Positions 1,620-10,172 of a stretch of 64,000 nt of DNA are shown here, piece after piece; within the stretch, counting starts at the first letter, position 1, and every line of letters begins with the position of its first letter. Location of the stretch: sequence record NC_018835.1; one strand, written 5' to 3'. Below the pieces are notes generated by a model, which worked only from the letters and a program-made list of their open reading frames with translations, was not told the DNA's origin and made no database searches. The translations under genes and the position numbers were made by a program. The stretch comes from Escherichia phage NJ01.

Positions 1620-2528
1620 TTATGCTGCCTGACGTGCCGCCATAATCTCAGCTGCCTTGCGCAATACTTCTTCCTCTTCTTCTTTCGCAGCTTGTTCGGT
1701 ACGGGTAGCAACCGTTGAAGAGATACGACCGCGCAGACTTTCTAACTTCTCCTGAATAGCCGCAATAGTCTTTTCCATTTCATCAGCGTATGAATCGAGT
1801 GATTCTAATTCCTTGCTTGATGCGTTCATCAGATAATCGTCTGAGATCGCTACAGTTGAAGCCGTGACTTTCTTGATGAGTGAATCAAAGGACTTTTTAA
1901 CTTTCCCCACGTCTTCACTTAAGGCGATAGTGTTGTCACTGGTAGCGCCATTGCGCTCATCAGCCAATAATTTGGCTTCAATACGGATTGCATTCAATCG
2001 TTCGACCAAAGCGTAAACATCTTGGTTAAAATCTTCCTTGTTTTTCGCCGGGATTTGCAGATGTGCCGCCACGTTGTCATTGCAACCCTTGTAGAAGTTA
2101 GGGTTATCGACTTCAATTTCACGGCCTAAAGCAAAGTTTTCGAAAGCATTTGACCAGCGAGCGCGGTTTTGTTCCATTTTGGCCTTAATTTGCGCTTCTT
2201 TCGCATCTTCTTTCGCTTTCGCTTCACCTTCCAGATTAATCCACTTTTTACGACCGTTTGCCGCATCAGTGTTAAACTTGATGGGAGTTAAGAAAGTAAT
2301 TGCAGTGGCGATCACATCCATATCGCGGAAACGTTCAGTTAACAGAAAATCGACTGCCGACTGCAATACGTCCAGCTTTTTACCGTTACTGCGGAAGTGC
2401 TGCAAGTGCCCTAACAGAAAATTAGAAACATCCTGTTTAATCGCCGCGTTATTGCTGCGGATATTGTTAGCCAGTGCGTTAAAGCCAGATTCTTTTACCA
2501 GATTGAAAATTTTAGCCATGATATTCAC
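1620..2528 (-). CDS. hypothetical protein (302 aa), coiled-coil/acidic C-terminus
   Basis: Long ORF, terminator immediately downstream; no recognisable catalytic motif. Confidence 0.55.
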   Translation of the reverse strand: MNIMAKIFNLVKESGFNALANNIRSNNAAIKQDVSNFLLGHLQHFRSNGKKLDVLQSAVDFLLTERFRDMDVIATAITFLTPIKFNTDAANGRKKWINLEGEAKAKEDAKEAQIKAKMEQNRARWSNAFENFALGREIEVDNPNFYKGCNDNVAAHLQIPAKNKEDFNQDVYALVERLNAIRIEAKLLADERNGATSDNTIALSEDVGKVKKSFDSLIKKVTASTVAISDDYLMNASSKELESLDSYADEMEKTIAAIQEKLESLRGRISSTVATRTEQAAKEEEEEVLRKAAEIMAARQAA

Positions 2529-3750
2529 CTTTCAATTGTAAGGGCACTATTGCCCCCGCTCGCTATGAGCCTTTTAAGCCATTATTGACTTATCAATATC
2601 CACTCAATGTTAAGTAAATATTGATAAGCGGAGCGGTCTTATCAGGAGTTAACCTTGCCGCCCCCTTATCCGTGATGTTTCATCTGGTATCTTTAATTAG
2701 TCGCTATAAACGAAGCCGACCTGATAGCGATGATAAATCATCACAATAAGGCAAGTGTGTCCGACACTATTTAATTACATTGCTGTAACCGTCGGCAATA
2801 TCGTTTATTATACTTTCGCTCTCGCCTATCCTTTTATATCAGCTCTCAATCGCTAGTCATCGCCCACTATGGGATACTATTGCGAAAGAGTCACTAACCG
2901 CCTAATATTCCGGCGTTTTATATCTTTCGGCAAGTTTACTACATAAACCGACTATGTACTTTCATCATAAGACGAATCTCAAGCCGTTCGCATCGTAAAC
3001 GTTCACACTAAACCTTATTGTTAAATAGCAATTTGCTACCCTTTAACCACCCCCCGCCGCTCTCAATTGAGCGTTAATTCGTCGGACTTGTCTGCCCTGA
3101 TTAGTTTCTTTCACTGTAGCACCGTGTTAGCGATGGCCGCCGCTACCCTTAACCGTGGGCGATTAGTTTAAGCCGTTGCGTGTACTCAATGAATCCGCTT
3201 ATCAGTGGTGACGTTTCCAGTTAAGGGATTGTAAAACTGTTTACCCTGATGGTTTAGGGAGTTTTACGCCGTTTTATCTGGTATGCTTTCCGATGGTTAT
3301 TATCTTCCAGCATATTCAACCGATATATGGGGACGTTTAAATTATTAAAGAGCGGTAAATCTGTCAGCGTGCTTTCTCACGCTACGCAACTGTAAGCCGT
3401 TGTTTCGCTTTTCACTTAAGCGGTGATTTGCCTAGTGAGTACGCTCATTATGGACCATGATGTTTTCGCTGTCAACCGCTTTTTTAATCTTTTTCGTCGT
3501 TCCCGCTATTGGGAGGATATATCAATCAGCTTTATTTGATTGAAGATCAAGCGATGAGGCTAAAATCATGATTCACATTGTTAAAGAGCGGTTACTACAT
3601 TCACAGCTTAACACATCGTGTTAGCTTGTCAAACTCTTTTTATCATCTTCTTTTATTCTTTTCCCTTATCTCGCGTGAATCTATGCGAAAGGGCAAGATG
3701 ATAAATTTTTAAAGAGCGGGGATGTTTCACGTCATCGCTGACTTATGCTT

Positions 3751-5711: not shown

Positions 5712-6688
5712 TTGTGAAGCCTCTTTGATATGTATCAGATAAGGATATAATAGGACACGCTTTCTTACATTGCAACCATCTTTCTAACTTTCTTTCTTTC
5801 TACTAAAAGTAGCGCCATTAAACTTACTAGTCCTATCTTTCGGGCTTAACTTGCTATCAGCGAACGACTCGACTACTTCACAAACGATCAGAACAAGTAA
5901 AGGAAACACCACAACCATGACCATCATTATTAAGATTATCATTTCTATTACTCCAATCACTCAATCAATAGGCTTCAATTTACTACTACTTAACAAGGAA
6001 GACAAGCGACCACGGGTAAACTGTTTCTACTATATAGGACGGGGCATACAACAACCGCATAACAGACCACGGGGAAACATAGCAAGATAATGCGGTAATA
6101 ATATACCACTTAAATAATTGTATAACTCAAACATCAAAAACCGTTCGTACTACGTACTCACGCACGCTGAAAAAGAAAGGAATAAACATCAATAAAAACA
6201 ATCATTCTTAAAAGAATTATTAAAAGAAATATAATCATCCACTTAATTAATACATACATCATTATTGCACTCATAACAATCACTATTGAAACTATTTACA
6301 TTCAAACTATGGGGAGCTGCGACTGTTACATGACGGTACGACGCTTTCGCTGTCGGTATTATATCGCCTTAAACTATTGGTACAGTGAAGACTAGCCTTT
6401 CTCCTACTCTTTAAAGGGGAACTAAATAAACGGGTAGGTAATGAATAGGATGGTATACACGGGGAAAGAATAACGGGGAGTAGGCACGGGGAAAGGTTGG
6501 AACGTTGATAGGGATGTAAAGGCATTGCCAATAACCATTTTTTATTTGAGGACTCCCCCTTTTTAGGAAACACGCTGCGAGCGCCTAGCCCCACTCGGTC
6601 AAATCAGAATTTTAAACAGATATATACATCTTTATTTTTTATAAATCTGTATTTTAAACTCTTATATATAAGCTTAAGAGAGGACTTA

Positions 6689-6850
6689 ATGAATCTAATT
6701 AAAGTATTTAGACGGATGAAGTGTAAGCACAATTACTATCCTCTTCGTAAAGCTTACGGGGATGAAAGAATACATGGTCTCTACCTATCAACATGGGGGT
6801 GTAAGGAATGTGGTAAGTTGAGATTCAGTACATGGGTGGATAGGCCTTAA
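6689..6850 (+). CDS. small zinc-ribbon-like protein (53 aa), below ORF-track size cutoff
   Basis: ATG at 6689 preceded by AGAGAGGA; translation MNLIKVFRRMKCKHNYYPLRKAYGDERIHGLYLSTWGCKECGKLRFSTWVDRP. Confidence 0.35.
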   Translation: MNLIKVFRRMKCKHNYYPLRKAYGDERIHGLYLSTWGCKECGKLRFSTWVDRP

Positions 6851-6854
6851 CGTG

Positions 6855-6950
6855 ACATGGCCTTTATGAGAGTGCCCTTTACTTCAGAGTACACGGGTTG
6901 TTGGTATGAGGGTGCCTTTACGGGTTGGTCTTATGATGTGCCCTTTATAC
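6855..6950. repeat. three to four direct repeats of TATGAG(A/G)GTGCC(C)TTTA(C/T)-like unit
   Basis: Copies at 6865-6882, 6905-6921, 6932-6948 plus a partial copy near 6856. Confidence 0.5.
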
Positions 6951-7069
6951 TTTTATTCAGAGGATAAGAATATGAAGTTTTTAAAAGAACTACACTCCTT
7001 GATTTATAAGGACATAGTGTACTCAGTATCCCGCAATGCATGGTTCTACCAAAAAGGTGGCAACGGTGA

Positions 7070-7360
7070 ATGGGTAGATTAAATCTTACTCAGAGGAGAA
7101 GAATTATGAATTTAGTATTAGACTTTTTATCAGAGTTGGTGCCTCGGTTCAGAACGGAGACATACGCTTTCGTAGTCAACAGTGACTCTGAAGATGGGAT
7201 GGAAGCTACGTGCTTAGGGCGTCTTGTTGACTTGGATGATGAAACAGATTTCGATATTACAATTGATGTGAGTAGCTTAGGTTGGCTCTTCTTCAGAGCA
7301 TTCCGCACTTACAAAGTAGAAACGTATAAAGATTATAGCAAGGGAGATAAAGATGAGTGA
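7070..7360 (+). CDS. hypothetical protein (96 aa)
   Basis: ORF track; first gene of rightward block. Confidence 0.4.
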   Translation: MGRLNLTQRRRIMNLVLDFLSELVPRFRTETYAFVVNSDSEDGMEATCLGRLVDLDDETDFDITIDVSSLGWLFFRAFRTYKVETYKDYSKGDKDE

Positions 7361-7982
7361 TTTAATCGCACGTAACATGGAAGGTGTTTATGGAGGTAGT
7401 TTCCCTGCTGGATCTCCTTTCCACATTAAAGCAATGGACATGGTTGATTACAATTCACAGCTGTGTCGCTCTGGTTGTAGCTTACAACATTTAGAAACTA
7501 TGGGAAATATCTCAGGCTTAGCTGTACAAGATTTATATAGTGGAAGTATTCTTAAACCAAATATTACGGAGAACAAAAACATGTTAGATTTGATTCATAC
7601 TACTCGCCCTAATTCTAAAACTAAATCAGCACCATCTACTCTGGAAGTAGTTGAATACGAATCTACTAAACATGATCATCTCCCTGACTATGCTCGTGCA
7701 ATGATTGAGATGATTGAAGAAGCTGAATATGAAATGCTCCATGATTACATTACCTCCAAAGATGAATGGCATCGTGATGTTCGAATCGAAGAAGATGGTA
7801 CAGAAACAATTACGTGGATTCACAAGAGTGAGTTAGTAGACGACGCACTGCGAGACTACGAAAAATTTTTGGTCGACGGCTCTATTCTTTTAGAGGAAGA
7901 GAAGGGTGTAGAACTTCCGTGGGAGGGTGAGACAATTGCTTTAGGTAAGATGTTTAACCTGTCCGTTGGTGATTGTAAGTAA
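7353..7982 (+). CDS. hypothetical protein (209 aa)
   Basis: ORF track; followed by terminator hairpin. Confidence 0.5.
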   Translation: MSDLIARNMEGVYGGSFPAGSPFHIKAMDMVDYNSQLCRSGCSLQHLETMGNISGLAVQDLYSGSILKPNITENKNMLDLIHTTRPNSKTKSAPSTLEVVEYESTKHDHLPDYARAMIEMIEEAEYEMLHDYITSKDEWHRDVRIEEDGTETITWIHKSELVDDALRDYEKFLVDGSILLEEEKGVELPWEGETIALGKMFNLSVGDCK

Positions 7983-7987
7983 TGTTT

Positions 7988-8008
7988 GCCTCCCTTGGGA
8001 GGCTTTTT
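7988..8008 (+). terminator. rho-independent terminator
   Basis: GCCTCCC-TT-GGGAGGC followed by TTTTT. Confidence 0.5.
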
Positions 8009-8038
8009 GTGTTGTTGATAATGTAGAAGGAGTATAAA

Positions 8039-8512
8039 ATGTTTGGAGAAAACGGAGAACTCACACCTGCACAGGTAGCTGAGATTACAGGAAGATTACC
8101 CGGAGTAACGGAAGAACTTGAAGGCCGTGGTATGAACCCAAGCAATGGGAAGTTTCAAAAGGGAAATAAATTCGGACGACCCAGAGGTAGTAGAGGTAAA
8201 CTGACACAATTAATGTTGGACCGTGTTGCTGCAAGTCATTTGTCTCCTGATGAAGTGTTAATTCAAATTTACGAAGATCCTAATATTCCACCTGATCTTA
8301 GATTCAAGGCTGCATCAAAAGTTGCAGATCTGGTATATCCTAAGGCGGCCTCTGTTGAAGTTAAGATTGAGGAAGAGAATGTAATCAACGAAGAATCATT
8401 GAATGCACAAATCAAGGACTTCTTGACTGGAGCACTTGGTATCGATGTTATGCCTCCAGAAGAAGACAACTCTGAGGACGCTGAAAAGGGGGAGGAAGCG
8501 GACGAGAGTTAA
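8039..8512 (+). CDS. putative terminase small subunit
   Basis: Position immediately upstream of large terminase; acidic C-terminus; no direct motif. Confidence 0.4.
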   Translation: MFGENGELTPAQVAEITGRLPGVTEELEGRGMNPSNGKFQKGNKFGRPRGSRGKLTQLMLDRVAASHLSPDEVLIQIYEDPNIPPDLRFKAASKVADLVYPKAASVEVKIEEENVINEESLNAQIKDFLTGALGIDVMPPEEDNSEDAEKGEEADES

Positions 8513-8630: not shown

Positions 8631-10172
8631 ATGTCATTAGATAAACAAATTTATGAAGCTCTAACTGGTAACAACCTTAGTGTGGATGAAAAGAAAGCAC
8701 TATTGAATATGTTGAAAGAGCGTGACCAATGGAGGAAGTATAATAGGATTTTGTCTTTCAAGGCGTATGACTTCCAAAAGAAATTTTATGCAGCAGGATT
8801 GAAGCATCGCTTTAGATTCTTGTGTGCAGCGAACCGTGTTGGTAAATCTTACAGCGAGGCATACGAGTTTGCTTGTCATGTCACAGGTCGATACCCAACT
8901 TGGTGGACAGGATATAAATTTAAAAGACCTATCTTAGCATGGGCAGTTGGTATTACAGGGGATTCCACAAGGAAAGTATTGCAAAAGGAATTGTTTGGTA
9001 CACCTATCGGAAAGGATACAAATTTATTAGGGACAGGTGTCATTCCTCGTGATGCTATCGTCATTGATACGATAGAACGAGATGGTAACAAACTTCAAAT
9101 CGTACAAATCAAACATCAAAATGAGAGAGGAGAGTTTGACGGTTTAAGTACATTAGAATTCCGTTCAACCCAACAGGGTGAACACACATTGATGGGTGCA
9201 ACAGTTGACTACATTTGGTTAGACGAAGAAGATCCATACGAGTCTATGGCTATATTCGCACAGTGCGTCACACGTACACTCACAACTAAAGGTCTAGTTA
9301 CAATTACAGCTACACCAGAGAACGGTTTAACTGAACTGGTAGATAAATTTATGAAAGGCGAAGGGGATGAGAGCACAGGTTCTCTCTATTTCCAGAACGC
9401 TTCTTGGTGGGATGCTCATGCAGACCTAGGTGGGCATATCACTGACCAAGATATAAAAGATATGACTGAAGGTATTCCAGCGTGGCAATTAGAGATGCGT
9501 TCAAAAGGTATGCCATTGTTAGGAAGTGGTTTGATATATGATGTATCGGATGACACAATTAAATGTGAACCATTCGAAATTCCTGATACGTGGAAACGTG
9601 TCTGTGCAATTGATATTGGTATTGATCACCCAACTGCTGCTGTTTGGACAGCTTACGACGCAAACACGGATACTATCTATGTTTACGACTCATATAAAGA
9701 AGGTGGCTTTACTCCAGTGTATCATGCTCCAGCTATTAATGGTCGTGGTCAGTGGATTCCTGTCATCCTACCGCATGATGCGGACAATACTGAGAAAGGT
9801 AGTGGTTCATCTGTTGCTCAATTCTATAAGAATGCAGGAGTTAACGTACAGAGTGAGACCTTCTACAACAAAATTGGAATGGATGGTAAAAAGAACTTCT
9901 TTGTAGAACCGGGAATCACAGATATCCGAGAAAGAATGATGAGTGGACGCTTTAAAGTCTTTAACACAGCCGCTAACGCTAAGCTATTCGAAGAGAAAGC
10001 TAGATATCACCGTAAGGTTGGTAAGATTATTAAAGAACATGATGACTTAATGGATGCAATGCGCTATTCAGCGTGTTCTGTTACACATCGTGGTCGCTCT
10101 AAGCATGATGTTAGCTACGGAAGTGCTTCTTTGTATGAGGCAAACGTAAGCAGATGGAATCAGAGCTACTAA
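8631..10172 (+). CDS. terminase large subunit
   Basis: Walker A-like CAANRVGKS, acidic WLDEED motif, size and position upstream of portal. Confidence 0.75.
   Translation: MSLDKQIYEALTGNNLSVDEKKALLNMLKERDQWRKYNRILSFKAYDFQKKFYAAGLKHRFRFLCAANRVGKSYSEAYEFACHVTGRYPTWWTGYKFKRPILAWAVGITGDSTRKVLQKELFGTPIGKDTNLLGTGVIPRDAIVIDTIERDGNKLQIVQIKHQNERGEFDGLSTLEFRSTQQGEHTLMGATVDYIWLDEEDPYESMAIFAQCVTRTLTTKGLVTITATPENGLTELVDKFMKGEGDESTGSLYFQNASWWDAHADLGGHITDQDIKDMTEGIPAWQLEMRSKGMPLLGSGLIYDVSDDTIKCEPFEIPDTWKRVCAIDIGIDHPTAAVWTAYDANTDTIYVYDSYKEGGFTPVYHAPAINGRGQWIPVILPHDADNTEKGSGSSVAQFYKNAGVNVQSETFYNKIGMDGKKNFFVEPGITDIRERMMSGRFKVFNTAANAKLFEEKARYHRKVGKIIKEHDDLMDAMRYSACSVTHRGRSKHDVSYGSASLYEANVSRWNQSY

Follow-up and report, generated by a model that had tools for sequence, protein, structure and literature searches.

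Five copies of a short two-part repeat, all on the same strand, are clustered in a stretch of about 115 bp (6836–6948) close to the physical left end of a phiEco32-like genome, a clustering far beyond chance, and the motif is essentially unique to this locus and the direct terminal repeat (DTR). The array was analysed in a 64,000-nucleotide stretch of Escherichia phage NJ01 (NC_018835.1), referred to here as the window, together with related phages. Sequence comparison leads us to propose, tentatively and with a little less than even confidence, that the array consists of DNA-level protein-binding sites for recognition of the concatemer junction or for packaging, and that the putative small terminase subunit (TerS) is their likeliest reader.

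Repeat units and the specificity of the motif

Three of the units were recorded in the initial annotation and are exactly where it placed them (6865–6882, TATGAGAGTGCCCTTTAC; 6905–6921, TATGAGGGTGCCTTTAC; 6932–6948, TATGATGTGCCCTTTAT). The clustering it described is borne out and its count is not: what it called a partial copy is a full unit at 6852–6867, and a fifth unit lies at 6836–6851 (Table 1). Spacings between the five units are irregular (16, 15, 39 and 27 nt). Unit 1 overlaps the last codons and the TAA stop codon (6848–6850) of the zinc-ribbon gene, and a unit is found at the end of this gene in most of the 16 close relatives. The segment 6893–6919 is duplicated at 6920–6946 as a 27-nt pair. 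A TCAGNG/ACGGGT linker trails the tandem block in the relatives as it does in the window, and Unit 5 is the best-conserved unit, being found in all 17 genomes.

Table 1. Features around the left-end array, in window coordinates; bit scores are from the position weight matrix (PWM).
Feature	Position	Strand	Remarks
ACGGGK copies at right genome end (left of DTR)	6012, 6039, 6069	+	span 6012–6074
DTR, 193 bp	6394–6586	+	end-to-end alignment with DTRs of phiEco32, SU10 and Paul
ACGGGK copies in DTR	6430, 6459, 6473, 6486	+	
Inverted weaker unit copy ATTGGCAATGCCTTTACA	6515–6532	-	within DTR; 10.7 bits
DTR core TGAGGACTCCCCCTTTTTA	6547–6565	+	resembles a unit with an expanded T run
AT-rich promoter-like segment	6587–6688		right of DTR
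Gene 1, 53-aa zinc-ribbon-like protein (C12, H14, C38, C41)	6689–6850	+	PHROG 7696, unknown function
ACGGGK copy	6756	+	
Unit 1 GTGGATAGGCCTTAAC	6836–6851	+	18.9 bits
Unit 2 GTGACATGGCCTTTAT	6852–6867	+	23.0 bits, top score in window
Unit 3 ATGAGAGTGCCCTTTAC	6866–6882	+	CCC variant, spacer one base longer
Linker TTCAGAGTACACGGGT	6883–6898	+	TCAGNG element, then ACGGGT copy
ACGGGK copies in array	6893, 6920	+	
Unit 4 ATGAGGGTGCCTTTAC	6906–6921	+	21.0 bits; ACGGGT at 6920–6925 next
Unit 5 ATGATGTGCCCTTTAT	6933–6948	+	21.3 bits; adjoins ribosome-binding region TTATTCAGAGGA of next small ORF
36-aa ORF	6972–7082		
phi32_4 homologue	7106–7360		
phi32_5 homologue	7353–7982		
Terminator hairpin and T run	7988–8003	+	
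gp36-type late promoter TAATGTAGA	8019–8027	+	matches SU10 Table S2
phi32_6 homologue (gp6), putative small terminase subunit	8039–8512	+	directly upstream of TerL in every relative
TerL	8631–10172		

Across 17 genomes, 72 distinct CCTTWA-centred units define a 16-base two-part consensus, RTGA-N4-S-CC(C)TTWA-Y, in which the RTGA and SCCTTWAY blocks stand at fixed spacing and the 4-nt spacer is weakly conserved. Tandem Repeats Finder makes no call at the array in the window region or in phiEco32, since the units are too degenerate and their spacing too irregular. A gapless consensus search recovered only two copies, with 0.37 expected by chance, and missed the third of three because it has a 1-nt deletion; regular expressions and a scoring matrix were used for the units after this. 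The pattern KGCC(C)TTTAY has four matches in the array and two elsewhere on both strands of the 64 kb, and TGA.{4,6}CCTT[AT]A has four in the array as against two other plus-strand and two minus-strand matches.

With a PWM built from the relatives only, the window and its near-twin 172-1 being left out, four window sites score 18.9–23.0 bits, all within 6835–6949; Unit 3 gives no match because its extra C moves the spacing by one base. The best site outside the array on either strand of the 64 kb reaches 11.0 bits, which is the level of the Markov-shuffle background. A genome-wide motif search had been suggested when the repeats were first noticed, and it sets four array sites, at 19–23 bits, apart from everything else in the 64 kb, at 11 bits or less. 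The complete 77,554-bp phiEco32 genome, scanned with a matrix built without phiEco32, has six sites that reach 18 bits or more, and all of them fall at 402–674. These are followed by an inverted copy in each DTR (TATGGGAATGCCTTTACC, 15.6 bits, the top non-array site genome-wide), and the remaining sites score 13 bits or less.

Position of the array relative to the genome end

The window region matches Escherichia phage 172-1 most closely and phiEco32-like podoviruses at 91–95% identity, and the window is a circularly permuted phiEco32-like genome (Kuravirus, Gordonclarkvirinae) with the DTR represented once. The virion DNA has its physical left end at 6394, as judged by aligning 6340–6700 to the true left termini of phiEco32, SU10 and Paul. 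Terminal repeats of this kind have been reported by experiment or from reads (PMC4281155, PMC9965538), and the Paul sequence record also lists one. The array is thus 450–555 bp in from the left terminus of a DTR genome, a location that changes its most likely function, and 250–360 bp from the DTR edge at 6586, with the TerS-like and TerL genes on the same side of the junction.

Sequences related to the units are also present within the DTR. The inverted copy in the window is the counterpart of the phiEco32 site scored above, and its GCCTTTAC half is unchanged across the four aligned DTRs. The DTR core (..TGAGGACTCCCCCTTTT..) is kept in all relatives, the distant loci included, and the SU10 DTR contains CCCTTTTTTA-10 nt-CCCTTTTTTA (PMC4281155). 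A second family, ACGGG[GT], clusters on the plus strand only across the concatemer junction, in the right-end flank, the DTR and the array; 10 of the 21 plus-strand sites in the window fall within 909 bp (6012–6920). The same pattern is seen in phiEco32, and locus L025 has about 10 copies at 1457–2082.

The repeats had been described as lying just upstream of the rightward gene block, which does not hold in a regulatory sense: the array is inside a short left-end transcription unit, made up of homologues of phiEco32 genes 1–5, that ends at the terminator hairpin, and the late rightward block begins from the gp36-type promoter 1.1 kb downstream of the array. SU10 Table S2 gives the same late promoter at 1480 and, upstream of CDS1, only 'a potential sigma-70 promoter' (PMC4281155). 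A promoter scan found no sigma-70 consensus promoter in or adjoining the array. The gp36 motif AATGTA (tAATGTATAtA) is centred at -11.5 of the mapped starts of genes 6, 13, 26, 40, 58 and 68, none of them at the array (PMC12276001, PMC8948821). Some phiEco32 units contain TAATGTGA, which resembles TAATGTATA, but none of the five window units contains AATGTA, and matches to TAATGTATA are found elsewhere in the window, for example at 8019 and 15495.

These observations bear on the main rival to a packaging role, an operator or activator array through which a phage or host regulator, covering the units, would control either the left-end genes or the TerS/late operon. The two-part motif with fixed spacing is typical of sequence-specific protein sites, so that this part of the regulator-site proposal in the initial annotation stands, and it would suit a regulator as well as a terminase. 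A promoter could not be detected in or beside the array, of either the sigma-70 consensus or the gp36 AATGTA type; the late promoter is far away and past a terminator, and no regulator gene could be recognised nearby. We consider regulation by such an array unlikely but worth serious attention, in part from the distant relatives described below.

The other proposal made at the outset, that the repeats are iteron-type elements, fares worse. An initiator-bound origin or end-replication element near the left end would be expected to have clustered direct repeats in one orientation, as plasmid and phage iterons do and as the array does, and there is an AT-rich segment at 6600–6680. DnaA-box-like repeats are also present in the same non-coding region of distant relatives, such as TTATCCACA three times in GAP52. 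Unlike the regular 11- or 22-bp phasing of iterons, however, spacings in the array and its relatives are irregular and out of helical phase (14–16, 25–27 and 37–40 nt); no DnaA box is found near the junction in the window, no adjacent unwinding element has the arrangement expected of an origin, and no Rep or initiator gene or family is recognised among the neighbouring proteins. The replication module is of the T7 type, with a primase-helicase and a DNA polymerase, and T7-type origins are transcription-dependent rather than iteron-dependent. An iteron function is therefore the least probable of the explanations considered here.

Conservation in close relatives

Lack of conservation in related phages had been named beforehand as one thing that would refute the proposal, and it is clearly not what is seen. 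The array is found at the same position, between the zinc-ribbon gene and the phi32_4 homologue, in 16 of 16 relatives, and related units are present in two phage families. The 17 genomes have 3–7 units each, with three in SkaterBoy and up to seven in Paul and SU10, and small ORFs between the units have been gained and lost among the relatives. Core spacings of 14–16 nt, which correspond to tandem units, are the dominant class (42 instances), followed by 25–27 nt (16) and 37–40 nt (8), with one instance each of 34 and 49 nt. The five spacings of 57–58 nt have the palindrome GTCATC-N3-GATGAC inserted, and the six of 94 or 182 nt have a small ORF inserted. The classes 14–16, 25–27 and 37–40 nt could be multiples of about 13 nt, although this is suggestive only, as the genomes are related and the counts are not independent.

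A coding explanation (ORFs 6857–6967 and 6906–7082, and phi32_1 as annotated) was rejected, every frame being broken among the relatives. No reading frame is conserved because copy number changes in units of 14–16 nt and because each unit contains TGA; ORFs called across the repeats, phi32_1 as annotated included, are therefore artefacts. Resemblances of the repeats to the 16S rRNA 3' end and to the nick consensus of LUZ24-like phages (TACT/RTGMC) were unsupported and were dropped. The array is not annotated in the GenBank records examined for this phage group and is not mentioned in the papers on SU10, YF01 and Privateer or in either of the 7-11 papers, a set that stops short of the founding phiEco32 descriptions (Savalia 2008, Pavlova 2012).

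The variability of the locus raises the question of whether the units are a functionless relic, produced by repeated tandem duplication and by recombination, illegitimate or homologous, at a hot spot for ORF cassettes, with the first unit being a duplicated 3' end of gene 1. Such an origin would account for the small ORFs between unit blocks in the relatives (phi32_2, a 26-aa hydrophobic mini-ORF and the 36-aa ORF at 6972–7082), for flanking duplications such as that of 6953–6971 and 7086–7104, and for the range in copy number from 3 to 7, SkaterBoy resembling a repeat-mediated deletion. It would not be expected to keep the CCTTWA and RTGA blocks invariant while the spacer and linkers drift, to survive in two phage families with only about 49% identity between their TerS-like proteins, or to retain units in three reading frames of one ORF, and we regard it as improbable.

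Distant relatives and the TerS-like gene

The phi32_6 homologue, which is named TerS from an HHpred search (PMC9965538), gave only a sub-threshold Pfam match to DUF5681 (14 bits) and no match in a PDB sequence search, and PHROGs did not confirm it as a small terminase either. A Foldseek search with its AlphaFold model (pLDDT 70) placed the PaP3 TerS at rank 14, with E = 2.7. Its identity as the small terminase is thus putative, from synteny with TerL and the HHpred statement in PMC9965538.

Using this protein we retrieved more distant loci from Grimontviridae (7-11, GAP52 and Privateer), PJNS034 and uncultured contigs. In 9 of the 10, the TerS-like gene is preceded by one to four related units, none more than 260 nt from its start; L027 has perhaps only one or two. 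Loci with TerS-like identity of 62% or less have ATGA-N4-SSCAT(C) arrays (e.g. ATGACCTCCCAT, ATGACATGGCAT and ATGAGGTGGCAT), which have the left half in common with the window units, even to the spacer variants. Those at 69% or more (L028–L030, 69–77%) have CCTTWA-type units, and have them in two places, after the DTR core and 50–100 nt upstream of the TerS-like gene. Overall phylogeny, we note, explains just as well why unit type follows TerS-like similarity. The first cluster of L028 is inside a 269-aa gp5-like ORF that shows homology to the phi32_5 homologue over residues 93–235 (E = 1e-13), and the units there fall in three reading frames, indicating a constraint on nucleic acid and not on peptide.

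In several distant relatives, TCAGTGTA/TCAGAGTA elements are interleaved with the units, and it is these loci that favour an operator or activator array. In 7-11, GAP52, Privateer, PJNS034 and L026 the units are 30–250 bp upstream of the first late gene with TCAGTGTA(A) interleaved, and one TCAGTGTA(A) element falls on the GTAAtg half of the late-promoter motif of 7-11 (PMC8948821). The palindrome GTCATC-N3-GATGAC that is formed from the ATGAC half-site in close relatives would also suggest a dimeric binder. The arrangement of units and promoter is nevertheless variable: units are upstream of the published late-promoter motif position before gene 1 in 7-11 (PMC8948821), in L028 they are downstream of an AATGTA element, and in both L028 and L029 units lie within ORFs. 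In addition, the zinc-ribbon gene 1 is missing from L028, and yet the CCTTWA units are present.

The units might instead act in RNA, either bound by an RNA-binding protein or as boxA-like or processing signals that govern how the small genes downstream are translated, how stable their mRNA is or whether antitermination occurs. Every unit is in the sense orientation for rightward transcripts, the last one always adjoins a ribosome-binding region, and UGCCCUUUA is one base off the rrn boxA core GCUCUUUA. Against this, the array has zero Rfam matches at E up to 1 and no excess of structure when its folding is compared with shuffles (z = -0.37 sense, +0.79 antisense), its spacing and the number of its units are free to vary, the highest-scoring copy outside the array is inverted and in the DTR, and the CUUUA part becomes CAU in distant relatives. 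Moreover, the 7-11 array is upstream of the published late-promoter motif, and no rightward promoter is known further upstream (PMC8948821). We regard a role in RNA as improbable.

A possible role in packaging

That the units are a binding array at the level of DNA is argued by their exclusivity to the locus, their constant orientation, the two-part motif with fixed spacing, the copy in the DTR core and the association with a TerS-like gene in two families. We infer that protein binds the array, that TerS is the binder and the phi32_6 homologue a small terminase, and that packaging starts at the left end. Late in infection the genome would be present as head-to-tail concatemers joined through the 193-bp DTR. 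An oligomeric small terminase might recognise several of the same-orientation RTGA-N4-SCC(C)TTWAY units 250–360 bp inside the DTR, and may also use the related half-site and T-run units in the DTR core. The units would then nucleate terminase on the side of the junction with the terminase genes, the large subunit would cut at the DTR, and packaging would run rightward.

We keep this packaging proposal tentative because TerS was identified by synteny and HHpred and because the array is 250 bp from the DTR edge and does not abut it. The array does not adjoin the cut site, and a gene lies between it and the DTR edge, which counts against packaging. The same is true of copy number, which goes down to three in SkaterBoy and perhaps to one or two in L027, implying that many copies are dispensable.

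The closest parallel is with the short-repeat arrays of T7. In the T7 sequence, CCTAAAG arrays with a 12–14 nt period are found inside and beside the terminal repeat, and those beside it are the SRL and SRR of Dunn and Studier 1983. As in T7, the window has a genome type with a short DTR that is packaged from concatemers, and in both there are many same-orientation cores of about 7 bp with a 12–16 nt period in the first few hundred bp and related copies in the terminal repeat, which in the window are one weak inverted copy and T-run variants. To our knowledge the function of the T7 short-repeat arrays is unproven. The cores are unrelated (CCTAAAG versus RTGA-N4-SCCTTWAY), which makes the T7 arrays an analogue and not a homologue. 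They also abut the repeat on both sides, whereas the main motif in the window is on the left-end side only, 250 bp off, and parted from the DTR by the promoter-like segment and a gene. It is the different ACGGGK family that spans both sides and the DTR in the window. A further difference is that T7 has its own RNA polymerase and phiEco32/SU10-type phages do not (PMC4281155).

In lambda cosB (R1–R3, the sites for gpNu1), SPP1 pacL/pacR and P1 pac, TerS has repeated sites close to its own gene or inside it. The array resembles these in having several short sites just inside the terminase-gene end, upstream of or within what is here a putative small terminase gene; the repeats are 250–360 bp from the DTR edge in the window and close to the TerS-like gene in 9 of the 10 distant loci. 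There is also one inverted copy, as R3 is inverted relative to R2 in lambda and the DTR copy is inverted here. Unlike in those systems, the distance between sites and cut is here in the hundreds of bp and not in the tens, no IHF site was identified, and the ends are blunt DTRs where cosB and pac systems have cohesive or headful-permuted ends.

A broader proposal, which we find possible but somewhat less likely than not, is that the RTGA-N4-SCC... units are the packaging signal (the cosB/pacB equivalent) of the SU10/phiEco32-type terminase and that, in Gordonclarkvirinae, Grimontviridae and uncultured relatives alike, they are shared and co-evolve with the small-terminase-like protein. If so, they would be the first defined recognition element of short-DTR packaging without a phage RNA polymerase and, by analogy, would offer for the terminal short-repeat arrays of T7, long unexplained, a function that can be tested. 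How the terminases of short-DTR phages choose the junction is poorly understood, T7 included, and no packaging signal has been defined for the phiEco32/SU10 group, which serves in phage therapy and as a model of transcription. The array presents a 115-bp target for binding assays, for packaging and transduction assays and for phage engineering, including the construction of minimal packageable cosmids and the sparing of the array when payloads are introduced into the popular 'moron' region. If the units are a regulator site instead, the array would point to a regulator common to two phage families.

Other features of the left-end region and its relatives

The optional insertion of 18–19 nt in the array, which turns the ATGAC half of a unit into the perfect palindrome GTCATC-N3-GATGAC, is carried by L006 (PE006), L007 (ES17), L008 (SGF2), L010, L011, L014 and L016. 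Its 3-nt centre differs by phage (TTT, AAA, AGG or AGA), and the TTT and AAA forms look like inversions of the element.

Tiny ORF cassettes have a hot spot in the same region, and ahead of each stands a duplicated ribosome-binding segment, TTAYTCAGAGGAGAAGAATTATG. The sites are 6953–6971 and 7086–7104 in the window, 489–629 in L001, and after gene 1 in L003, L005, L006, L008, L010 and L014. The cassette is the 36-aa ORF in the window, phi32_2 in phiEco32 and ES17, and the 26-aa hydrophobic mini-ORF MEIIFWLVIVFCLFICFSIARCIKYD in others. To the left of the array, a promoter-like AT-rich segment (AAATCAGAATTTTAAAC..TATATA) is present as a 42-bp tandem duplication, at 6601–6626 and 6643–6668, that is missing from phiEco32, SU10 and Paul and could supply two tandem early promoters.

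Several deposited records call ORFs across the repeats, so that the array flags annotation errors. In phiEco32 (L001) the zinc-ribbon ORF is 253–417, in the frame annotated in SU10 and ES17; the GenBank CDS phi32_1 (296–496) is in another frame, crosses the repeats and is probably a misannotation. The Paul CDS at 104–415 begins within the DTR and appears over-extended. Several records, and PHROG 12176 as well, tag the phi32_5 homologue as an 'ABC transporter / oligopeptide-binding protein', a label that has no Pfam support and looks like a propagated annotation.

In T7 (L017), a single GGTGCCCTTTATGA at 883–897, just upstream of gene 0.3, is identical to an array unit, which is probably coincidental. 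Among the Grimontviridae-type phages, DnaA-box-like repeats are found in the long non-coding region upstream of the TerS-like gene: at 462–474, 554–566 and 621–633 in L022 (GAP52), at 907–963 in L021 (7-11), and at 798 and 998 in L024; none are present at the junction in Kuravirus. At 2528–3372 of the uncultured relative L025, an inserted gene with a faint HNH_3 match lies directly before the TerS-like gene and overlaps it, and two ORFs (Terminase_6N and Terminase_6C) stand in place of one TerL, an arrangement that points to an insertion of homing-endonuclease or intron type in the packaging module.
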